From contig JBDLJB010000009.1 of NCBI GenBank assembly GCA_039714555.1, forward strand, positions 17,379-81,378: a DNA stretch of 64,000 bases, written 5' to 3'. This DNA is from Bacteroidota bacterium. GTDB lineage: Bacteria > Bacteroidota > Bacteroidia > Flavobacteriales > Flavobacteriaceae. The notes under the pieces were generated by a model. It was not told the origin of the DNA. It made no database searches and worked only from the letters and a program-made list of their open reading frames with translations. Below are positions 3,210 to 14,320 of this stretch, piece by piece (position 1 is the stretch's first letter; the number at the start of each line of letters is the position of its first letter). The position numbers were made by a program, and so were the translations under genes.

Positions 3210-5426
3210 TTATTTCTTCTTAGGATGTACCAATGTCATTTCTTCAATTAAATGGGTAGCTCCAGCATATTTATCTATAATAAATAGAACATATCGTATA
3301 TCAACACTGATACTTCTTACGATATCTGCATCATAATAAAGATCACCCATAACACCTTCCCAGGTACCATCAAATAATAAACCAGTTAAATTACCATTGG
3401 CATCCAAAACAGGGCTTCCTGAATTTCCACCTGTTGAATGGTTGGTTGTTAAAATATTTACAGGCATTTTACCATTTTCCCCATATTGTCCGTAATCTTT
3501 TGTATTGTAAAGATCTCGTAATTTTTGAGGTACATCAAACTCATAATCTCCGGGTTTATATTTTTCCATTACACCGTTTAAATAGGTATTAGTTGTATAG
3601 ATAACACCGTCTTTTGGTTCAAAACCCTGTACACGTCCGTAGTTGGCTCTTAAAGTGAAATTTGCATCAGGATAAAAACGATCTTCGGGGAAAACTTCCA
3701 TCAGGGCTTTCATATACTTTTTTTGAATAGCAGCCAACTGTAAATTTATTTGTTGGAATTCAGGGCTGATTTTAGTATAATAAATTTCGTGAATTTCTTT
3801 GGCAAATACATAAGCAGGATCATTATTCAGCTTTTCAATGACCTTTTCCGGTGTACCGGATAATAATTCATTTGCTCCTTTCAAGCTGGTTAGTTTTGTA
3901 TTTTGATAAATATCATTTGTCAATGCTGTATAATCAATTCCTATCATATTTTCCGGTAAATATTCTTTAGGGATCTTTTCAGCATATAAATTTGTCAGCT
4001 TTTCAAAAACAGGCTGATCAACTTTGGCACTGTAGTTTTTATATTTTCTTTCATAACCAGATAAAACCCTTTGCTTAGCTTTTTCATAGGCTTCTTCTCC
4101 GCCTTTTTTATAGGCTTGCTCTAATTGATATGCACTAAAGGTAATATTTAACAATTCTACATTTCTATAAGCTACTTCATTCCAATAATCTCTTGCCAAA
4201 GCAACCTCTTCAATTTCTTTATAGAGCTTTTCAAAATCAGATAAGATTGATTGGTATTCAACCAGATCTTTTTCTTCAACTATTTTACTGAACTCTCTTT
4301 CTTTAGCTTTTTTCTTTTCAATTACATTTTTTTGATGAATTCCCTGGTTTTCACCAATGAAGAATTTCCAATAATTAGCAATTCCTGCAAATTTAGATGC
4401 ATACTGAATTCTTATTGCATCATCAGCACGCATATATTTATCCATTATATTTAATGCATTTTCTCTTACTTCAATTTTGGCAGGATTTAATACATTCACT
4501 TTTTGAGCAATACCAACAGCGGGTAAATATTCATCAGTTCTTCCGGGAAAACCGAAAATCAAAGCAAAATCATTTTCTTCCACTCCGTCTAATGAAATTG
4601 GTAAGTAGCGTTTTGGCTTGTATGGAACATTGTCTTTGGAATATTCTGCCGGACGATTATTAACATCTGCATAAATTCTGAACATAGAAAAATCTCCTGT
4701 ATGGCGTGGCCACATCCAGTTATCGGTATCCTTACCAAATTTACCTATTGATGATGGTGGAGCACCTACCATTCTAACGTCTTTATAAACTTCTTTAATA
4801 ATCAAAAAGTATTGATTCCCTTTGTAAAAAGATTTTACATTGGCAGTTTGCCATTCTTCTTTTACAGCTGATTTTGTAACCTTTGTAATATTTTGATCTG
4901 TCAATTTCTTTTTTGCTGTTTCATCCATATCATCATTGATACCGGCTAAAACCTGAGAAGTTACATCATCAATTCTTATGATAAAAATTGCTGTAAGATT
5001 TGGAGTTGGCAATTCCTGATCATAATTTTTTGCCCAAAAACCATCTTTTAAATAATCGTGTTCAACCGTAGAATGTGACTGAATCGCTTCATACCCACAG
5101 TGATGATTTGTTAACAGCAATCCGTTAGGAGAAATAACTTCAGATGTACACCCTCTTCCAAAAATTGCGATGGCATCTTTTAAACTTGAATTGTTTACAT
5201 CGTAAATATCCTTGGCAGTTAAATTACTCCCTAATAATTGCATTTCCTCTTCATTCATTCCTTCCAAAAGAGAAGGTATCCACATACCTCCCTGGATCTC
5301 TTTAGCTTCTTCGTTGCTTAGCGTTTTTGGTGCTTCAGGGGCAACAATACTGGTTGTTTCCTGGGTCGTTTTACAGGAAATAATGCTTAAAAAAGCAAAT
5401 AATAAATAGATTCTTAAATGTTTCAT
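3210..5426 (-). CDS. S46 family dipeptidyl-peptidase, DPP7-type, probable lipoprotein
   Basis: GGMWIPSLLEGMNE N-terminal motif, TNHHCGY (catalytic His) and GGNSGSP (catalytic Ser), with Gly 18 residues after the Ser (LLFDGTWEG). The start was moved to the ATG giving MKHLRIYLLFAFLSIISC (lipobox). Confidence 0.9.
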   Translation of the reverse strand: MKHLRIYLLFAFLSIISCKTTQETTSIVAPEAPKTLSNEEAKEIQGGMWIPSLLEGMNEEEMQLLGSNLTAKDIYDVNNSSLKDAIAIFGRGCTSEVISPNGLLLTNHHCGYEAIQSHSTVEHDYLKDGFWAKNYDQELPTPNLTAIFIIRIDDVTSQVLAGINDDMDETAKKKLTDQNITKVTKSAVKEEWQTANVKSFYKGNQYFLIIKEVYKDVRMVGAPPSSIGKFGKDTDNWMWPRHTGDFSMFRIYADVNNRPAEYSKDNVPYKPKRYLPISLDGVEENDFALIFGFPGRTDEYLPAVGIAQKVNVLNPAKIEVRENALNIMDKYMRADDAIRIQYASKFAGIANYWKFFIGENQGIHQKNVIEKKKAKEREFSKIVEEKDLVEYQSILSDFEKLYKEIEEVALARDYWNEVAYRNVELLNITFSAYQLEQAYKKGGEEAYEKAKQRVLSGYERKYKNYSAKVDQPVFEKLTNLYAEKIPKEYLPENMIGIDYTALTNDIYQNTKLTSLKGANELLSGTPEKVIEKLNNDPAYVFAKEIHEIYYTKISPEFQQINLQLAAIQKKYMKALMEVFPEDRFYPDANFTLRANYGRVQGFEPKDGVIYTTNTYLNGVMEKYKPGDYEFDVPQKLRDLYNTKDYGQYGENGKMPVNILTTNHSTGGNSGSPVLDANGNLTGLLFDGTWEGVMGDLYYDADIVRSISVDIRYVLFIIDKYAGATHLIEEMTLVHPKKK

Positions 5427-5584: not shown

Positions 5585-7711
5585 TTATTTTTTAGGATGT
5601 ACTAATTTCATTTCATCTATCAATCTTTTATCGCCGGCATATTTATCGATAATAAATAAGATATAACGAACATCAACCATTATATTTCTGCAAATATCAG
5701 GGTCGTAATTATAATCACTCATGGTACCTTCCCAAACTCTGTCAAAATTTAAACCGATTAGATTACCTTTTGCATCTAAAGCCGGACTGCCTGAGTTGCC
5801 ACCTGTTGTATGGTTTGTTCCAATAAAATTGACAGGCATTTTGCCATTTATGCCATAATTCCCAAAATCTTTATTCTCATACAGATCGATCAATTCTTGT
5901 GGAAGATCAAACTCATAATCACCGGGTTTATATTTCTCTATAACACCACCTAAATAAGATACCGGTTCGTAATATACTGCATCGCGAGGATTGTAACCTT
6001 TTACTTTACCATAGGTTACACGTAAAGTACTGTTAGCATCCGGAAAAAATCTTTCATCAGGAAAAGTTTCCATCAATGCTTTCATATACTCTTTTTGAAC
6101 TGCTTGTATTTGAAGGTTTATTTCATTGAATTTGGGGTTGATCTTTGTATAGTAATCTTTTGATAAATTCTTTCCTAGGCTATAGGCAGGATCAGCATTT
6201 ATTTTTTCAATTACTTGTTGTTGAGTTCCCTCCATAAGGGATTTAAAACCTTCAGGAGTTGTTAATTTTGTAGTACTGTAAATAGTATTGGTCAAATCAG
6301 TATAATTTACATTTTTAAGTTTATCTGAAAGGTATGCTGCTGGGATTTTTTTACTGTAAATTTCAATTAGTTTTTCAAAAACATCTTTGTCAACTTTTGG
6401 ACTGTAATTTTTGTAATCACCTTTAGATGAATTAATTAATTTAGACCTCTCTGATTCAAAACTTGTAGGATTTGCGGTTACTTTTTCTTCAAATTGATAA
6501 AGTTTAATAGTAGCTCTTAGCAATTCTACATTTCGATAAGCAACTTCTTGCCAATAGGCTCTTGCTAAAGCAACTTCATCAATTTCTTTATAAAGTTTGT
6601 CAAATTCATTGAGCAAATTTTTGTATTCTGAATTGTTTTGATTTTTATTTAAAAATTCTTGTTCTAAATTTTGTTTTTTAGCAATTGCTTTTGATTTTTC
6701 AATTCCTTGATTTTCACCGATCCACTTTTTCCAATAATTGGCAATTCTGGCGTATTTTGAAGCATATTGAATTTTAATTTTATTATCAGCACGCATATAA
6801 ACATCAACTATTTTAAGTGCTTCATCTCTTACCTCAATTTTTGCAGGATTGATTTTATGAACTATTTGATCTATAGCGATTGCTGGTAAATATTCATTTG
6901 TTCTTCCCGGAAAACCAAAAACAAGTGTAAAATCATCTTCGGCAACACCATCTAATGAAACAGGTAAAAAATGCTTAGGTTTGTAAGGAACATTATCTTT
7001 ACTGTATTCAGCAGGTTTGTTATTTTTATCAGCGTAAATTCTAAACATTGAAAAATCACCGGTATGACGAGGCCACATCCAATTATCGGTATCCGAACCA
7101 AATTTACCAATAGAAGTAGGAGGTGCACCTACTAATCGAATATCTTTAAAGTTCTCAGTAACAAATAAAAGGTATTGATTTCCTTTATAAAAAGCTTTAA
7201 CCTGTACGTCTTGCCAATCTTCTTTACTTACATTTTTTTTAACTAAATTAATATTTTGATCGATCTTTGATTGTTTTTCTTTAACGGTCATCTCTTCATT
7301 AACACCATTAAACACTCGTGTTGTAACATCGTCAATTCTATTAATAAAAGTAACATACATACCCGGATTTGGTAATTCTTCAGTATCATTCATAGCCCAA
7401 AAACCATTTTTAATATAGTTATGTTCTACTGATGAATGTGATTGAATAGCTCCATAACCACAGTGATGATTGGTTAAGATCAAACCTTTGTTTGAAATTA
7501 TTTCACCGGTACAACCTCCATTGAAATGAATAATTGCATCTTTTAAACTTGAGTTGTTTGCATTGTAAATATCTTTGGCAGTCATTTTGCTGCCTAATTT
7601 TTGCATTTCAGTTTCGTTCATTCCTTCCAGTAAAGAAGGAATCCACATGCCACCTTGTTGAGCAGTTATTTGAAATGCAATTAAGAAAAATAGTATTCTA
7701 ATATATTTCAT
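5585..7711 (-). CDS. S46 family dipeptidyl-peptidase, DPP11-type
   Basis: Carries the same S46 motifs: GGMWIPSLLEGMNE, TNHHCGY and GGNSGSP. Arg lies 18 residues after the catalytic Ser (LNFDRVWEG). The start was moved to the ATG giving the signal peptide MKYIRILFFLIAFQITAQ. Confidence 0.9.
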   Translation of the reverse strand: MKYIRILFFLIAFQITAQQGGMWIPSLLEGMNETEMQKLGSKMTAKDIYNANNSSLKDAIIHFNGGCTGEIISNKGLILTNHHCGYGAIQSHSSVEHNYIKNGFWAMNDTEELPNPGMYVTFINRIDDVTTRVFNGVNEEMTVKEKQSKIDQNINLVKKNVSKEDWQDVQVKAFYKGNQYLLFVTENFKDIRLVGAPPTSIGKFGSDTDNWMWPRHTGDFSMFRIYADKNNKPAEYSKDNVPYKPKHFLPVSLDGVAEDDFTLVFGFPGRTNEYLPAIAIDQIVHKINPAKIEVRDEALKIVDVYMRADNKIKIQYASKYARIANYWKKWIGENQGIEKSKAIAKKQNLEQEFLNKNQNNSEYKNLLNEFDKLYKEIDEVALARAYWQEVAYRNVELLRATIKLYQFEEKVTANPTSFESERSKLINSSKGDYKNYSPKVDKDVFEKLIEIYSKKIPAAYLSDKLKNVNYTDLTNTIYSTTKLTTPEGFKSLMEGTQQQVIEKINADPAYSLGKNLSKDYYTKINPKFNEINLQIQAVQKEYMKALMETFPDERFFPDANSTLRVTYGKVKGYNPRDAVYYEPVSYLGGVIEKYKPGDYEFDLPQELIDLYENKDFGNYGINGKMPVNFIGTNHTTGGNSGSPALDAKGNLIGLNFDRVWEGTMSDYNYDPDICRNIMVDVRYILFIIDKYAGDKRLIDEMKLVHPKK

Positions 7712-7975
7712 TTGATATGAATTTAATTGATAAAAAATTTCAAACAAATATACATAACCTTATTGTATTTCAATTAAGAAAATTGGTAACAAATCTACTA
7801 AGTAACTATACAAATTTCTAGGTTGAAAATTCAACAATGAAGTTAAGGATGCTTTTTTTTGAAGCTATAAATGATTTCCTTAATATATTATTTAAAGGTA
7901 ATCACTGAAATGGTATTTATTTTGTACGTAATAACCGAAAAGACAGACTTATGGTAGATTTCAAAAATATTTAAT

Positions 7976-7983
7976 TATTTTTG
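7976..7983 (+). promoter_or_regulatory. -7 promoter box TATTTTTG
   Basis: Exact TAnnTTTG, ending 22 nt upstream of the ATG at 8006. Confidence 0.4.
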
Positions 7984-8005
7984 AAGTCAACAGAATAAAC
8001 AAGAT

Positions 8006-8893
8006 ATGACAGGATTTTTTGCGATTTTAGATGATATTGCTACATTAATGGATGATGTAGCTGTAATGTCAAAGATAGCTGCTAAGAAAACAGCTGGAGT
8101 ATTGGGCGACGATTTGGCCGTAGGAGCTGATCAGGCATCAAGTTTTAGAGCTTCGAGAGAATTACCGGTACTTTGGGCTATTACTAAAGGGTCATTTTTA
8201 AACAAGTTGATTATTTTACCATTTGCTTTTTTGTTAAGTGCTTTTTTACCACAATTAATTGTACCCATTTTACTTATTGGTGGAGTATATCTTAGTTATG
8301 AAGGAGTTGAAAAAATTATTCACACATTTTTTCATAAAGAAAACCATAACATAGATGAAATAATTGAAAGTAAAAGTTCAAAAGAGCTGCTTGAAGTTGA
8401 AAAATCAAAGATTAAAACAACTATTCTAACAGATTTTATACTATCTATTGAGATTATTATGATTGCTTTAGGAACTGTTTCAGATCAACCACTTATGAAA
8501 CAAATTTTAGTTGTATCAATTATTGCTATTGTTGCAACTGTTGGTGTATATGGAATTGTAGCTTTGATGGTTCGTATGGATGATACCGGGTATAAATTGG
8601 TAAAGAATGCAAGAGGAAAATCTAAGTTTGTCAAATCAGCTTTTGTAGCAACAGGTAAAGGTTTGGTTTGGACCTTGCCAAAACTTATTAAATTACTTGG
8701 TATTGTTGGTACCATTGCGATGTTATTGGTAGGAGGAGGAATGTTTGTTCATAATATTCACCAGATTCATGAATTTTTTCATGCAATACCTATTATTGTT
8801 ACAGAACTTGTTATGGGATTGATTGTAGGGCTTATTGCTTTTATTATTGTGGAAACCTTTAAGAAGGTTAAAACAAAATTATCTAATAAGTAG
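8006..8893 (+). CDS. DUF808 (YedI-like) inner-membrane protein
   Basis: The N-terminus FFAILDDIATLMDDVAVMSKIAAKKTAGVLGDDLAV is the hallmark DUF808 start. Multiple TM helices follow. Confidence 0.8.
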   Translation: MTGFFAILDDIATLMDDVAVMSKIAAKKTAGVLGDDLAVGADQASSFRASRELPVLWAITKGSFLNKLIILPFAFLLSAFLPQLIVPILLIGGVYLSYEGVEKIIHTFFHKENHNIDEIIESKSSKELLEVEKSKIKTTILTDFILSIEIIMIALGTVSDQPLMKQILVVSIIAIVATVGVYGIVALMVRMDDTGYKLVKNARGKSKFVKSAFVATGKGLVWTLPKLIKLLGIVGTIAMLLVGGGMFVHNIHQIHEFFHAIPIIVTELVMGLIVGLIAFIIVETFKKVKTKLSNK

Positions 8894-9113
8894 GTTTTGT
8901 GTAAAATGTGTATCAACAAAATATATCTATTTTAGTTTTAATATGAGTATTGGTAGATAAATCGGCTTTTTTTTTAACAGAGACCAATTAAATTAAAAAG
9001 TAAATTAAGTTTATTATTTTTTATTTTTGTGTACCATATAATTTTTTTTTAGTTTTATATTTTAACAAATTATTTAGTGTGCTGAAATCATTCAAGTATA
9101 ATTATAATTGACC

Positions 9114-11225
9114 ATGTTTAAAAATTCAAAATTCTATACAACATTCCTGATCATTTTTTTATTTTTATTTTTTTATACTGTGTATGATTATTACCAATAT
9201 AATGAAAAAAGAGATAAACAAGCTATTCAAAAAGGTGAAAGTAAAAGAAATGAAACTAAAAACATTCTAAATGGTGCTTTAGATACAATTGAAAGTGTGA
9301 CTTTGAATTTGGCTGAAAAATTATCAAAAAAACATTATTCAAAAAGTCAAATTGAAGAATTAATAAGACGAACTACTATTGAAAATGAATTTTGTCTTGG
9401 AATTACAGCTGCTTTTGAACCATTATATATTAATGATTCTTCTAAACAGTTATATGCCCCTTTTTATACTCGAAAGTATGATAAAATAGAATATATTGAA
9501 AATTCTTATGACTACACAAATGATACGATTAGCACTGCCCAATGGTACACCAAAGTTATTCAACAAAAAAAAGGTGTTTGGAGTGATCCATATATTGGAC
9601 AAGTAGCGCAAGAATTGGTTGTAGATTACGGAATTCCTTTTTATCAAACTGATAGGTCCGGCAACAATAATATTGCCGGAGTAATATCTTTTACTATATC
9701 TACATCTCATATTACTAATTATCTTCATGATATTACTTTAGGGAAAGCGGGTTTTGCATTTATTGCTAATAAAGATTTATATTTAATTTCTCACCCATCA
9801 ACAGAATTAATGACTAAACCTGAAAGGTCAAGAGAATTATTAAAAAGTCAACCTATATATAAATCATTAAATGAAAGAAAAGAAGGATATTTTACAGGGT
9901 ATAGTATCATTGCTCAAGAAGATGCTGAGTTTTTCTTTACAGAACTTAATAATCAGTGGATATTAGCTGTTGTTATACCAAAACATGATTTACAGGAATA
10001 TACAAGTAAAATTTCAAGAAAATTAATTCATATATCTATATTTCTAACATTAACCTTAATTGCTTTTATAATTTTATTCTTAAAAATATGGGAAGGCAAT
10101 ACCAGAAATTTATGGTTGTTTTCATTTTCAATTGGCACCTTATTATTTCTAAATATAGTTTTTCTTTGGTATCTTAATAAAAGTGATGAGTTTTATAATG
10201 ATAAAGCTGAACAAACAAAAATACTGAGTATTACCACTGTTGATAATTATCTTAATACCCGAAATAAAAAGCTTAAACAGATTGACTCTTCATTAGAGTT
10301 AGTTGAAATTCCAACAGGTGTTTTTTTATATGACATTGATTTTAAGAATGCTTATGATGTTGCAATAATTGGGAAGATATGGCAAAAAATACCAGATAAC
10401 TTTGAGTTAAAAAATGAGACAACCTTTGTTTTTCCTCAAGCTTCTGCTACTGGAATTTCAGTTCGAACAAGGCCAATGTCGAAAGAACATATTGATGATT
10501 ATTGGCTATATAGTTATGATTTTAATGCAACAATTCAGTTTGATTTTAATTATTTAAAATACCCACTAAATTATAAAAAACTAGATCTACAAATTACTTA
10601 TCCGCATATAGACGATAATGTAGTATTAACTCCAGATATACAATCCTATGAATTTGTAGATCCTTCATTAAACCCTGGAGTTAGTAGTGATATATATATG
10701 CCAAATTCAAAAGTTTTAGAATCCTATTTTTCATTTCATGAACATAATTTTTACACTAATTTAGGAAATAATTATTATAAAGGGTTAAAAGAAACCGCAG
10801 TATTAACCTTTAATGTTTTGATTAAAAATGTTATTATTAGTTCAATTATTTCAAACATCATTCCAGCTTTTATTATTGCTGTAATGTTATTCTTATTGCC
10901 TTTTACAATTGATAAAAGGGATGGTGAAATAAAAGAAGGTGGTGCTTTAAATATTATTCAGGCTGCAGGTGGTTTCTTTTTTGTTTTATTGCTTGCACAT
11001 ATACAATTAAGAAATGATATTGAAACACCGGGATTGATCTATCTTGAAACTTTATATTTTGTAATGTATTTTATGTTGGCAATTATGTCAACTGCAGTAC
11101 TGCTATTTTTAAAAACCAATGATTATAAAATTTTAGAATATAAACATAACCTAATTTTTAAATTGAGTTATTGGCCAATTTTATTTTTAAGTATTTATAT
11201 AATTTCATTATATATATTTTATTAA
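9114..11225 (+). CDS. double-Cache sensor fused to a prokaryotic pentameric ligand-gated ion channel (Cys-loop superfamily homologue), 7 predicted TM
   Basis: Domain order is TM1, dCache-like region, TM2-TM3 hairpin, pLGIC-like extracellular domain, then M1-M4. The dCache motifs are AQWYTKV, WSDPYIGQ, VVDYGIPFY, GVISFTIS and GKAGFAFIANKDLYLISHP. The extracellular-domain motifs are IPTGVFLYDIDF, KYPLNYKKLDLQI and NVVLTPD. The channel helices include IIPAFIIAVMLF, LLLAHI and ETPGLIYLETLYFVMYF. The track start at 9108 is TTG; the first ATG is at 9114. Confidence 0.75.
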   Translation: MFKNSKFYTTFLIIFLFLFFYTVYDYYQYNEKRDKQAIQKGESKRNETKNILNGALDTIESVTLNLAEKLSKKHYSKSQIEELIRRTTIENEFCLGITAAFEPLYINDSSKQLYAPFYTRKYDKIEYIENSYDYTNDTISTAQWYTKVIQQKKGVWSDPYIGQVAQELVVDYGIPFYQTDRSGNNNIAGVISFTISTSHITNYLHDITLGKAGFAFIANKDLYLISHPSTELMTKPERSRELLKSQPIYKSLNERKEGYFTGYSIIAQEDAEFFFTELNNQWILAVVIPKHDLQEYTSKISRKLIHISIFLTLTLIAFIILFLKIWEGNTRNLWLFSFSIGTLLFLNIVFLWYLNKSDEFYNDKAEQTKILSITTVDNYLNTRNKKLKQIDSSLELVEIPTGVFLYDIDFKNAYDVAIIGKIWQKIPDNFELKNETTFVFPQASATGISVRTRPMSKEHIDDYWLYSYDFNATIQFDFNYLKYPLNYKKLDLQITYPHIDDNVVLTPDIQSYEFVDPSLNPGVSSDIYMPNSKVLESYFSFHEHNFYTNLGNNYYKGLKETAVLTFNVLIKNVIISSIISNIIPAFIIAVMLFLLPFTIDKRDGEIKEGGALNIIQAAGGFFFVLLLAHIQLRNDIETPGLIYLETLYFVMYFMLAIMSTAVLLFLKTNDYKILEYKHNLIFKLSYWPILFLSIYIISLYIFY

Positions 11226-11237
11226 CATCTTATTTTT

Positions 11238-12353
11238 ATGAAATTAATTTTTATATCACTTGTCATATTTATTTTTGGGATAAGTTTTTTACATGCACAG
11301 GAAGAAATTAACACTTCAAGTCAAGATACTTTAATAGTTGGCTATAATATCAATGCACCTTTTATTTATAAAGATAATGATAAATTAGAAGGATTAAGTT
11401 ATAGATTATGGCAAAAGATAACTGCAAATGACAATAATTTTTATAAATTAGAATATTACCCATTGGATAGTTTACTGTTGGGTTTGTCAAATGGTTCTAT
11501 TGACATAGGATTATCACCATTAACTATAACAAGCGATAGAAGTGAAAAGATAGATTTTTCAGTACCGTATTATATTTCAAATTCAACGGTAATAGTTAAA
11601 AAATTAAATTTTAAGCAGAAAGTTTCTAGATTTTATTCTTCCATTTCCATAATAAATTTCCTAAAGATTTTGGGTTTTTTATTTATTTTATTAGCAGTCT
11701 TTGGCCTTTTTGTCTGGATATTTGAAGGTGGTAAAAATGAAGAATTCGGCAAGGGTATTCATGGCTTTTGGAATGGAATCTGGTGGTCAGCAGTAACAAT
11801 GACCACAGTAGGGTATGGAGATAAATCCCCAAAAACATTTGGTGGAAGAGTTGTTGGTTTGATCTGGATGTTTGCGGCAATTATTTTAATCTCAAGTATT
11901 ACTGCAGGAATTACTTCATCGCTTACCGTTAAAAAATTAAGCTGGTCCAATGATGATTTATCTACATTTAAAGAAGTTACAATAGGTACTGTAAAAGGTT
12001 CGGCAACCGAACGGAGATTACTTGATAATTATTACAATAATTTAAAAAGCTATCATACTTTTGATGAATTATTATATGGCTTAAAAAAAGATGAAGTTCA
12101 AGTTGTTGCTTATGATGAACCTCTTTTACGATTTGTTCTTAAAAATGAAAAGGATTTTAAAGATTTTGAATTTTTAAATATTTCATTTAATCAATCTTTA
12201 TATGCCATGGGCTTTTCTAAAAAGTTAAGTGCCAAGAAAAAAGCTGAAATGTCACAAAAAATATTAGAATTTTCTGAAAGTAATGATTGGAAGATCTTGT
12301 TATCAAAATACGATCTGATTAACAATCAACGTCTTATTTTAGAAACAAAGTAA
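11238..12353 (+). CDS. GluR0-type prokaryotic ionotropic glutamate-receptor homologue (substrate-binding domain interrupted by a K+ channel pore)
   Basis: A signal peptide is followed by the S1 lobe (LIVGYNINAPFIY...LTITSDRSEKIDFSVPYY). Next come M1 (ILGFLFILLAVFGLFVWIF), the pore helix and filter WWSAVTMTTVGYGDKSP, and M2 (VVGLIWMFAAIILISSITAGI). The S2 lobe follows (TIGTVKGSATE...VVAYDEPLL). There is no further TM. Confidence 0.8.
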   Translation: MKLIFISLVIFIFGISFLHAQEEINTSSQDTLIVGYNINAPFIYKDNDKLEGLSYRLWQKITANDNNFYKLEYYPLDSLLLGLSNGSIDIGLSPLTITSDRSEKIDFSVPYYISNSTVIVKKLNFKQKVSRFYSSISIINFLKILGFLFILLAVFGLFVWIFEGGKNEEFGKGIHGFWNGIWWSAVTMTTVGYGDKSPKTFGGRVVGLIWMFAAIILISSITAGITSSLTVKKLSWSNDDLSTFKEVTIGTVKGSATERRLLDNYYNNLKSYHTFDELLYGLKKDEVQVVAYDEPLLRFVLKNEKDFKDFEFLNISFNQSLYAMGFSKKLSAKKKAEMSQKILEFSESNDWKILLSKYDLINNQRLILETK

Positions 12354-12354
12354 A

Positions 12355-13056
12355 TTATTCCACAACATTAGGATTTTTCATCAAACCAAATTTATCTATT
12401 GGCATTTCTACAAAATGCTCTAACATTTCTTGAATATCACCTTCTACAACTGATAGATCTTCTCTGATCAATTGTACAAGATTATCTAAGGACACAAAAT
12501 ATTCTTTAAAAGAATCTTCTTCTAATGGAATTTCCAAACTTTTATAAATTGAAGCAAGAAAATCTGGATGCTTATTAAAATATTTTACGAAGTGTTTAAT
12601 TTGTTTTTTTGACATATTTCGGGGATATAAGCAGCCATATACCTTTAATTGCACTATGAATTGTGAAAAGGTTGAAACTAAATCAGAACTTGCAACCATA
12701 GCTGATTCACCTATTTTATTTTCTACCACTTCAATTTCATCTTTATCGATGAAACCATCATCATCCATTTTAAAAATTATTTCTAAAATATTTTGATACA
12801 TATCAATTTTTTTATCAAATAATTTTTTTTCAAATTCACCTTCTCTTTCATGCCTGGATTGTATTTTCATAACTACCATCATTGCAGCAACAGTAAACGA
12901 TGCCCCTAAGGTTGCAGCTAAAATTTCAATGGTAAAATCACTAACTCCCTGTTTAAAAAAAAGATGTAAAAATAAGAATGCAAAAATTGCAAAGATTGCC
13001 GCATAGAGTACAATTAATGAATCCCTTTGCTTTGAAGTTTTATTTTTTTTCATCAT
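12355..13056 (-). CDS. two-TM membrane protein with a cytoplasmic helical domain, unknown function
   Basis: Track ORF. It has a basic N-terminus, two hydrophobic helices and an acidic soluble domain of about 160 aa. Its stop lies 1 nt from the stop of the convergent gene at 12353. Confidence 0.55.
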   Translation of the reverse strand: MMKKNKTSKQRDSLIVLYAAIFAIFAFLFLHLFFKQGVSDFTIEILAATLGASFTVAAMMVVMKIQSRHEREGEFEKKLFDKKIDMYQNILEIIFKMDDDGFIDKDEIEVVENKIGESAMVASSDLVSTFSQFIVQLKVYGCLYPRNMSKKQIKHFVKYFNKHPDFLASIYKSLEIPLEEDSFKEYFVSLDNLVQLIREDLSVVEGDIQEMLEHFVEMPIDKFGLMKNPNVVE

Positions 13057-13141
13057 GTTTCATTTGTGGTTTAAATATATACAATTATACTTTGAGATAA
13101 AATATATTTGTAATAAACTTGATAAAAGGACTAGTCTATGA

Positions 13142-14320
13142 TTAGTTTATTAAATTTATATGTTTACTCCATGTTTTATCAAAATCAATTCTCAAACCAA
13201 TAACAAAAACGTTAGATCTTTCTGCCCCTGATTCGTCAAAACTTTTGTTATTATATCTATACTCAGAATAAACAGAAGCATATTTAAGGAAATGATATTG
13301 TGCGCCTAACAAATAAAAACGTTTGCTAAAATCTTTAGGTAATAATCTGTTATCTGATTCGGGTTTTTCATAATTAATTCCTGCCAATACCTTTAAATGA
13401 TTATTCATAAATGAATAAGTAGCTACAATTTCATAACCTTTTCCCGGATATACTATAGATTCAAGTTCTTCTGTTTCAGGATTAATAATATTGACAAAAT
13501 CACCATTTTTCTGACTTGCATAAATAGCAGATATTAATAACGGTCCATTTTTATAATCAATTCCTGCGGTAAAATATATAGGGTCACCTTCTAATCCTTG
13601 AAGATTTGGAAGTTCTAAAAACTTTGGCCCTAATAATGCTTTATTGTAAGCTGTACCTAAGGTTAAATGATCTGTTAAATGAAGCCTTAAAGAAGCACCA
13701 TAATTATCAAAAATATTTGAACCGCCCCTGGCTCTCATTTGTGTTTGTAAACCCACATCAAATTTCCAAAACGAATTTCTATAAATAATGGCACTTTCAG
13801 CTCTACCGGTTCCTGTTTCCCCACCATCGCCACCAGTTGGAGAATATACATAACTCGCCTGTGCACTTATAACATTAAAAATATCTGTTTTTCCGGCTAC
13901 ATCTTTATAAACACTATTCAATTTACCAATTGTTAAATTACCGTATTCAGCAAAATCAACCCCTAAAAAACCCAATCGAGTTGAAAAAGTACTTTTTTTA
14001 TCACTAAATTCTAAAATAGTAAAGCCATCATTACTTGTGTTTGGGTCAGCTTGAAAGCTAAATTGATTGTCAATTAAATTAACCGCAAACTCACCACCAA
14101 AATAAACTTTAAACTTTTCATTTTCTCCAAAATAATAGTCAAATTCAAAACCTACTCTGGGGCTAGCATCCTGTATTTCGGTTTCACCATTAAATGCAGC
14201 TAAATGTGCTCTAAAAATTCCATAAGTATTAAACTCTAAATTTTTTGTTAATGTATCTTCTTGACTGATTATTGATCCAGTAAAAAATAGGAAGACGAAA
14301 AAAGAAAATATTTGTTTCAT
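13142..14320 (-). CDS. outer-membrane porin-like beta-barrel protein
   Basis: Signal peptide MKQIFSFFVFLFFTGSIISQ followed by alternating amphipathic beta-strand patterns rich in Tyr/Gly/Asn/Phe. The family assignment is generic. Confidence 0.55.
   Translation of the reverse strand: MKQIFSFFVFLFFTGSIISQEDTLTKNLEFNTYGIFRAHLAAFNGETEIQDASPRVGFEFDYYFGENEKFKVYFGGEFAVNLIDNQFSFQADPNTSNDGFTILEFSDKKSTFSTRLGFLGVDFAEYGNLTIGKLNSVYKDVAGKTDIFNVISAQASYVYSPTGGDGGETGTGRAESAIIYRNSFWKFDVGLQTQMRARGGSNIFDNYGASLRLHLTDHLTLGTAYNKALLGPKFLELPNLQGLEGDPIYFTAGIDYKNGPLLISAIYASQKNGDFVNIINPETEELESIVYPGKGYEIVATYSFMNNHLKVLAGINYEKPESDNRLLPKDFSKRFYLLGAQYHFLKYASVYSEYRYNNKSFDESGAERSNVFVIGLRIDFDKTWSKHINLIN

Follow-up and report, generated by a model that had tools for sequence, protein, structure and literature searches.

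The window is a 64,000-nucleotide (nt) stretch of a Flavobacteriaceae genome (contig JBDLJB010000009.1). All positions are counted within it, unless they follow the label of a relative's locus (L001 and so on). Its + strand carries two adjacent genes for predicted ligand-gated ion channels. The first open reading frame, ORF1 (9114..11225), runs from an ATG at 9114 to a TAA at 11223-11225 and encodes 703 amino acids (aa) with seven predicted transmembrane (TM) helices per subunit. An alternative TTG start lies at 9108, but the ATG is favoured because the homologues begin MFKN.... The second, ORF2 (11238..12353), runs on the same strand from an ATG at 11238 to a TAA at 12351-12353 and encodes 371 aa. 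The intercistronic spacer CATCTTATTTTT (11226..11237, + strand) comprises 12 nt. A gene for a 233-aa protein converges on the pair from the - strand, and a single base (12354) separates its stop codon (12355-12357) from that of ORF2. The original prediction placed an apparent operon here, with a pentameric ligand-gated ion channel (pLGIC) fusion gene stopping at 11225, a GluR0-like gene starting at 11238 on the same strand after 12 nt, and a convergent membrane-protein gene whose stop lies 1 nt from that of the GluR0-like gene; the ORF map agrees with all of these coordinates. The GC content is uniform at 24-33%, and no compositional anomaly hinting at recent transfer was found from it.

As judged by its modelled fold together with weak but specific profile evidence, ORF1 is a fusion of a double-Cache (dCache) sensor with a pLGIC. 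An AlphaFold (AF2) model built on a 5-sequence alignment had a predicted local distance difference test score (pLDDT) of 43.7 and was unusable. With a 112-sequence alignment, the model of the full-length monomer reaches a pLDDT of 93.7 and a predicted template-modelling score (pTM) of 0.87. The C-terminal half of this model, compared with the PDB by Foldseek, matches GLIC (template-modelling score, TM-score, up to 0.71), DeCLIC, sTeLIC, and GABA-A receptors, all with a probability of 1.00. The TM-scores of the pLGIC matches to their targets are 0.6-0.71. The predicted module consists of a beta-sandwich followed by four helices, M1-M4, and both its N- and C-termini are placed outside. The extracellular beta-sandwich (10212..10829, + strand; aa 367-572) is delimited by the AF2 strands, Foldseek, and the profile alignment with GLIC. 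The transmembrane domain M1-M4 (10833..11219, + strand; aa 574-702) comprises AF2 helices at aa 574-598, 610-635, 643-667, and 680-702.

The 350 C-terminal aa of ORF1, searched as a single sequence, have no match in Pfam, NCBIfam, or the PDB, and a 5-sequence profile of the C-terminal half found no pLGIC. A 36-sequence profile of this half gives 71 PDB matches at an expect value (E) <=10, the best of them at 1.8e-4, and among the matches listed (60 of 71) all are GLIC or GLIC chimeras. The profile and GLIC are collinear through the Pro-loop (YPFD in both), pre-M1, the conserved Pro of M1, M2, and M3. In ORF1 itself, the Pro-loop reads YPLN (10560..10571, + strand; aa 483-486) and the pre-M1 segment LIKN (10818..10829, + strand; aa 569-572). 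The Pro-loop residue P484 is invariant in the 112 sequences, and P584 of M1 is nearly so. Glu608 lies at the cytoplasmic mouth of M2, which spans approximately aa 609-635. The profile aligns this residue with GLIC Glu222 (-2'), a position at which Gly prevails in the family, although the M2 alignment may be out of register.

At the gating interface of pLGICs, a Pro-loop Asp forms a salt bridge with a pre-M1 Arg, as in D122-R192 of GLIC. The Asp and Arg pair is present in 91 of the 112 family members and Gly with Lys in seven, while ORF1 and its close relatives have N486 and N572. From the alignment, the loss of both residues together suggests a genuine contact in the family that has been altered in the clade of ORF1. 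The two positions covary in the dCache-pLGIC family, consistent with the known salt bridge.

The N-terminal half of ORF1 matches the Pfam family MCP-like_PDC_1 (E 6.7e-16; 59.2 bits against a cut-off of 27), and dCache_1 at E 4.7e-10 with 39.8 bits, below the cut-off of 45. Its PDB sequence matches are Mlp37 and other dCache chemoreceptor domains, and Foldseek aligns the modelled half with the dCache sensors 3lib and 3lic at a TM-score of 0.71-0.78. The periplasmic double-Cache (PDC) sensor (9342..9992, + strand; aa 77-293) consists of a pair of PDC lobes carried by a long stalk helix and flanked by TM helices, with TM1 (approximately aa 5-25) and the stalk helix coming before it. A helical hairpin of TM2 and TM3 follows (10005..10196, + strand; aa 298-361), with AF2 helices at aa 298-323 and 330-361 and hydropathy segments at 300-329 and 332-354. 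In the model, the chain leaves the dCache domain, passes through this hairpin, and re-enters the periplasm ahead of the pLGIC ectodomain. Hydropathy and the AF2 model together give seven TM segments. The predicted topology is an internal N-terminus, TM1, the periplasmic dCache domain, the TM2-TM3 hairpin, the periplasmic beta-sandwich, and M1-M4, and therefore both ligand-binding modules would be periplasmic. The protein presumably assembles as a homopentamer.

In amino-acid-sensing dCache domains (dCache_1AA), an Arg in an R-x-W motif and an Asp hold the alpha-carboxyl and alpha-amino groups of the ligand. ORF1 does not have this motif. Its alignment with Mlp37 sets AQW against RPW, and Thr against the Asp of 'fyD'. 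With both the Arg and the Asp missing, the ligand of the dCache domain of ORF1 is probably not an alpha-amino acid.

A word-indexed homologue search found only five relatives of ORF1, and the rarity that this implied was ruled out by an exhaustive HMMER search. With the C-terminal half as query, the latter finds 1699 representatives of 50% identity clusters at E<=1e-3, and 1076 at E<=1e-30. Most representatives are about 700 aa long and match at their C-terminus, in the same layout as ORF1. The dCache-pLGIC family spans Bacteroidota, Proteobacteria, Chloroflexota, and Methanosarcinales, and databases list its members as hypothetical proteins.

ORF2 is a GluR0-type K+ channel by its sequence features. 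Pfam places SBP_bac_3 at aa 32-282, enclosing Ion_trans_2 (148-229) and Lig_chan (149-242), and Lig_chan-Glu_bd is also matched. The protein thus comprises a PBP-II domain that is split into S1 and S2 by an M1-P-M2 insert. In the PDB, it is closest in sequence to AMPA receptors (GluA2, E 1.3e-17), and the alignment with GluA2 covers S1, the pore, and the start of S2. The S1 ligand-binding motif PLTITSDR (11517..11540, + strand; aa 94-101) corresponds to PLTITLVR of GluA2, its Pro, Thr, and Arg aligning with P478, T480, and R485, and it is kept in all relatives aligned. In structures of ionotropic glutamate receptors (iGluRs), these three residues hold the alpha-amino-acid moiety of the ligand. 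Further along, GSAT of ORF2 stands against SGST of GluA2, so that S654 is replaced by Ala and T655 is retained, and an acidic S2 motif (DEP/DDP) is conserved in the clade. With its amino-acid-binding residues present in this form, ORF2 probably senses an amino acid.

The pore of ORF2 contains the K+ selectivity filter TVGYGD (11805..11822, + strand; aa 190-195), which is invariant in 12 aligned sequences. Hydropathy shows a signal peptide at aa 1-22, segments at 132-166 and 200-231, and none after S2. The order of elements is thus signal peptide, S1, M1, P-loop, M2, and S2, with two TM helices and a P-loop but no third TM helix, as in GluR0. Presumably the channel is a tetramer. Homologues number >3050 at E<=1e-10. 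A degenerate or merely accessory PBP-II protein was rejected as an identity for ORF2, as its pore and filter are intact and conserved. The channel identities given in the original prediction are both upheld, that of ORF1 by the GLIC profile match, the AF2 model, and Foldseek, and that of ORF2 as an iGluR/GluR0-type channel by Pfam, the GluA2 match, and TVGYGD. The accompanying claim that both channels have periplasmic sensor domains is supported at the level of prediction by the AF2 model and hydropathy.

The pair occurs in seven other contigs (L001, L005, L006, L027, L028, L029, and L030), giving eight loci with the window. About five lineages keep it, namely the window, L001/L029, L005, L006, and L027/L028/L030, and three of these are separate species representatives in the genome collection. 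Pairwise identity within this clade is 62-79% for ORF2 and 72-92% for ORF1. The spacer is 11-12 nt long in all eight loci, and its sequence differs. The same picture is obtained from either gene. Starting from ORF1, the loci with a C-terminal half 78-88% identical and an adequate contig (L001, L005, and L006) all have ORF2 immediately downstream; L010 ends inside ORF1 and L007 about 120 nt past it, and these two are uninformative. Starting from ORF2, four metagenome contigs at 67-74% identity (L027-L030) all have an ORF1 homologue directly upstream. The flanks vary within the clade, with DUF808 upstream only in the window and the gene for the 233-aa two-TM protein present or absent. The adjacency is older than the strain level and has been kept at constant spacing despite rearrangements of the flanks. 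The original prediction would have fallen had adjacency been conserved in no related genome, but about five lineages retain the adjacency.

Several features of individual loci in the clade may be mentioned here. The two genes diverge discordantly, as L006 and L027 share 92% identity in ORF1 but 69% in ORF2, and the closest ORF2 sequences are those of L005 and L006 (79%). Faster evolution or recombinational replacement of ORF2 could account for this. In L001, the ORF1 homologue (7336-9449) is split by frameshifts into calls of 170 aa and 482 aa, and the frame of the ORF2 homologue breaks near its 3' end (10472-10578), while the near-identical L029 has an intact ORF2. For these frame breaks, an assembly error is more likely than pseudogenisation. 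L006 contains an IS1595/ISXO2-like transposase gene (3718-4704) about 230 nt upstream of its ORF1 homologue, which hints at local rearrangement.

The layout of ORF1 and ORF2 is that of an operon, with the same strand, a short spacer, and no terminator or promoter found between the genes. Gaps of 7-12 nt separate the other closely spaced pairs of genes that share a strand in the window, and 12 nt is therefore an operon-type spacing in this region. A candidate Bacteroidota -7 promoter box of the pair, TATTTTTG (9022..9029, + strand; TAnnTTTG), lies 85 nt before the ATG of ORF1. It is the sole + strand TAnnTTTG in the 220-nt intergenic region 8894-9113. Downstream on the + strand, the motif next occurs within the two genes themselves, in ORF1 at 10397 (834 nt ahead of ORF2) and in ORF2 at 11270; a motif scan of the 800 nt upstream of ORF2 found no box for this gene. 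A terminator scan of 8700-13300 found no terminator-like hairpin. Consensus scans of both kinds have low power. The single upstream box and the missing hairpin between the genes had been noted in the original prediction, and both are confirmed over the regions named. Because the spacing is constant while the flanks change, and no terminator or promoter box separates the genes, ORF1 and ORF2 are most likely co-transcribed.

The genes around the pair are mainly those of envelope proteins. Upstream of ORF1 is a DUF808 membrane protein (8006..8893, + strand; Pfam E 7e-95). DUF808 has no match beside the pair in any of the related loci and is not part of the conserved block. The convergent gene downstream (12355..13056, - strand) encodes the 233-aa protein, which has no Pfam or NCBIfam match. 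Its N-terminus carries two TM helices, and some 170 aa form an acidic soluble domain. L027, L028, and L030 share the gene (83-91% identity), whereas in L001 and L005 it is missing and a porin gene directly follows ORF2. In the window, this Porin_1-family outer-membrane porin (13142..14320, - strand; Pfam E 2.2e-13) lies beyond the 233-aa gene. It is syntenic with the pair in most loci, with tblastn matches in L001, L005, and L028. Pfam and hydropathy thus agree with the earlier assignment of the neighbours as DUF808, a two-TM protein, and a porin-like gene. The claim that the locus has no kinase, cyclase, methyl-accepting chemotaxis protein (MCP), or transcription factor also holds among the nearest genes, the further ORFs there not having been family-searched. 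Two genes upstream of ORF1 is a full-length S46 dipeptidyl-peptidase (5585..7747, - strand; Pfam E 1e-242). Such a periplasmic peptide degrader could supply amino-acid ligands, but no linkage to the pair was seen in related loci.

The preferred explanation, to which a probability of roughly 0.6 is given, is that ORF1 and ORF2 are two autonomous ligand-gated channels that are co-expressed as a two-gene transcription unit in this clade. A GluR0 gene and a dCache-pLGIC gene would have been brought together in one marine-sediment clade of Flavobacteriaceae and held 11-12 nt apart. One promoter upstream of ORF1 would drive both genes and so provide their co-expression. The ORF1 homopentamer would form a pore controlled by a small molecule on the dCache domain, the pLGIC ectodomain, or both. 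In the ORF2 tetramer, the periplasmic PBP-II clamshell would bind an amino acid and gate the TVGYGD K+ pore. The linkage may be of benefit by letting two different periplasmic cues act on membrane potential or K+ flux in a coordinated way.

A number of findings weigh against this explanation. With regard to ORF1, the Pfam families Neur_chan_LBD and Neur_chan_memb match neither ORF1 nor any of 36 family members scanned singly. ORF1 also lacks the pairing of a Pro-loop Asp with a pre-M1 Arg, and with Asn at both positions its gating may be atypical. With regard to the shared promoter, the distance of 85 nt from the box to the ATG is an outlier in the window, where about 12 other genes have a TAnnTTTG box 20-35 nt ahead of their ATG; the leader is thus longer than those of other genes, as first described. 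No -33 TTTG element is visible for the candidate box by reading the sequence. TAnnTTTG occurs 132 times in the window against 125.6 expected, which is not above chance, and the missing box before ORF2 is for this reason weak evidence.

The remaining objections concern the pairing itself. Among more distant relatives of ORF1 (<=69% identity), it is found in 0 of about 20. At 67-69% identity, the gene downstream is DsbD_2-like in L008 and L009 and DUF4440 in L002. In these two loci (L008 233-3045; L009 1558-4370), the DsbD_2-like gene encodes a multi-TM protein of 233 aa, and its start overlaps the pLGIC stop. The gene downstream is BipA in L003 (51% identity to ORF1), and in the cluster representative L086 (44%) a gene for an outer-membrane Phenol_MetA_deg-like protein lies 12 nt downstream. 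Tight linkage to whatever gene follows seems to be common for the dCache-pLGIC gene. No ORF2-like gene occurs within 6 kb in 15 ORF1 loci at 25-34% identity, which include Methanosarcinales, Nitrosomonas, Nannocystis, and Anaerolineales. An all-against-all clustering of ORFs across 26 dCache-pLGIC loci gives no recurrent partner beyond the clade-specific ORF2 and porin. Searched from the other side by tblastn and the family hidden Markov model, ORF2 relatives at <=57% identity have an ORF1-like gene beside them in 0 of 55 contigs, of which about 40 have >=600 nt upstream, and very distant GLIC-like pLGICs could be missed by this search. The ORF2 homologue of the nearest outgroup, L031, lies between MiaA on its upstream side and an S13 carboxypeptidase on its downstream side. 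The pairing is clearly a single, shallow, lineage-specific arrangement of Flavobacteriaceae metagenome-assembled genomes. Because it is absent from all other sampled relatives, neither channel needs the other. The operon proposed in the original prediction gains indirect support from the conserved adjacency and the 11-12 nt spacer, but it is confined to one shallow clade. The pairing is no obligate partnership of the two families, and it appears to be a local unit of co-expression rather than a general signalling module.

The main rival draws on these observations and holds that the adjacency is incidental. An ancestral rearrangement would have placed a GluR0 gene downstream of the dCache-pLGIC gene, and this order would persist by descent while being functionally neutral. 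It fits with both families being overwhelmingly found apart, with unrelated genes standing at 0-12 nt behind the dCache-pLGIC gene in sister lineages, with the 26 family loci that share no recurrent neighbour, and with the local rearrangement indicated by the IS1595-type transposase just upstream of ORF1 in L006. This rival is possible but somewhat doubtful, since the pair and its spacing of 11-12 nt survive the divergence of ORF2 to 62% identity while both flanks change. Such persistence exceeds what neutral gene order usually shows, and the functional motifs are intact in both proteins.

Two further explanations give the pair a more specific role. In a narrower form of the co-expression explanation, which takes up the dedicated chemo-electrical module suggested in the original prediction, the two channels would oppose each other. 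A cation-conducting dCache-pLGIC would depolarise the cell and the amino-acid-gated, K+-selective GluR0-type channel would drive it toward the K+ equilibrium potential, so that two periplasmic cues become depolarising and repolarising currents, with the linked expression setting their ratio. The different sensors point in this direction, as the dCache domain of ORF1 lacks the Arg/Asp motif and ORF2 has the Pro, Thr, and Arg motif, and so do the K+ filter of ORF2, the Glu608 of ORF1 at a position where its family mostly has Gly, and the conservation of the pair in the clade. No phospho-relay gene was found nearby among the genes covered by the family searches. If true, the pair would be a minimal bacterial 'excitatory/inhibitory' electrical unit, made from relatives of the two main synaptic receptor superfamilies and working without a phospho-relay. 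However, this scheme is entirely inferential. The cation selectivity of ORF1 is tentative because the Glu608 argument depends on the uncertain M2 register, and the restriction to one clade shows that the module is clearly not a general property of either family. Such an opposing pair is considered unlikely. A physical or allosteric cooperation, in which the PBP-II clamshell of ORF2 acts as a ligand-presenting partner of the pLGIC, is highly improbable. ORF2 does contain a PBP-II domain, and conserved neighbourhoods of pLGIC and PBP-II genes as well as PBP-I fusions were reported by Tasneem et al. (PMC549065). Against this, ORF2 is a complete channel with its clamshell tethered to its own pore, the symmetries of a pentamer and a tetramer do not match, and ORF1 already has a fused sensor. 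Co-expression of two autonomous channels thus stays the explanation of choice.

Next to nothing is known of what bacterial pLGICs and GluR0-type channels do in the cell, although both are used as models of synaptic receptor structure. A conserved bicistronic pair offers a concrete hypothesis, namely their joint action on membrane potential or K+ balance, and provides a defined gene set for co-expression, with the limit that the pairing is confined to one uncultured clade. The dCache-pLGIC family as such is large (about 1700 clusters formed at 50% identity), goes undetected by the Pfam Neur_chan models, and has a predicted architecture of seven TM helices with a hairpin between sensor and channel. 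This makes it useful for annotation and as a source of structural targets.

The C-terminal half of ORF1 has the predicted fold of a beta-sandwich and M1-M4 in common with GLIC, ELIC, sTeLIC, and DeCLIC, and with DeCLIC it also shares an extra N-terminal periplasmic domain. The N-terminal lobes of DeCLIC are soluble and are not known to carry extra TM helices. In contrast to the solved bacterial pLGICs, ORF1 has only about 14% sequence identity to them, escapes detection by Pfam Neur_chan, and has three extra TM helices (TM1 and the TM2-TM3 hairpin) that link the dCache domain to the channel. It also differs from the pLGIC pattern of Asp and Arg by having Asn at both the Pro-loop and the pre-M1 position. 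Electrical signalling through metabolite-gated K+ flux is known from the K+ channel YugO in Bacillus subtilis biofilms. This is a precedent for a ligand- or metabolite-gated K+ flux as a signal, although YugO belongs to another channel family and is not known to have a second ligand-gated channel encoded alongside.

GluR0-type channels were known before 2010, and the 'Group 1' prokaryotic glutamate-receptor K+ channels were described by Ger et al. (PLoS One 2010; PMC2950845). Like Synechocystis GluR0 and this group, ORF2 has the order S1-M1-P-M2-S2, a K+ filter, no third TM helix, and the conserved amino-acid-binding Arg. It differs from these in that it comes from Bacteroidota, has Ala at the equivalent of GluA2 S654, and lies directly behind a pLGIC gene.

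Fusions of pLGICs (ART-LGICs) to MCP-N/Cache domains were reported in Cytophaga, Microbulbifer, and Methanosarcina by Tasneem, Iyer, Jakobsson, and Aravind (Genome Biol 2005; PMC549065), who also described the sporadic, transfer-like distribution of prokaryotic pLGICs and predicted operons that join bacterial pLGIC genes to genes for stand-alone PBP-II domains. ORF1 resembles these fusions in its N-terminal Cache sensor, pLGIC ligand-binding domain, and four-TM pore. The family is likewise sporadic in its spread, here across Flavobacteriaceae, Methanosarcinales, Nitrosomonas, Nannocystis, and others. Full-text literature searches found no description of a pLGIC gene paired with a GluR0-type gene. 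The claim of novelty in the original prediction therefore stands for the pairing itself, which is apparently undescribed, and not for the Cache-pLGIC architecture or the pLGIC/PBP-II operons, which have been known since 2005. In those operons the PBP-II gene codes for a stand-alone binding protein, whereas the downstream gene here codes for a complete GluR0-type K+ channel. Novelty lies in the pairing alone, which varies the known theme of a pLGIC with a PBP-II-domain gene, the PBP-II domain now being part of a second channel.

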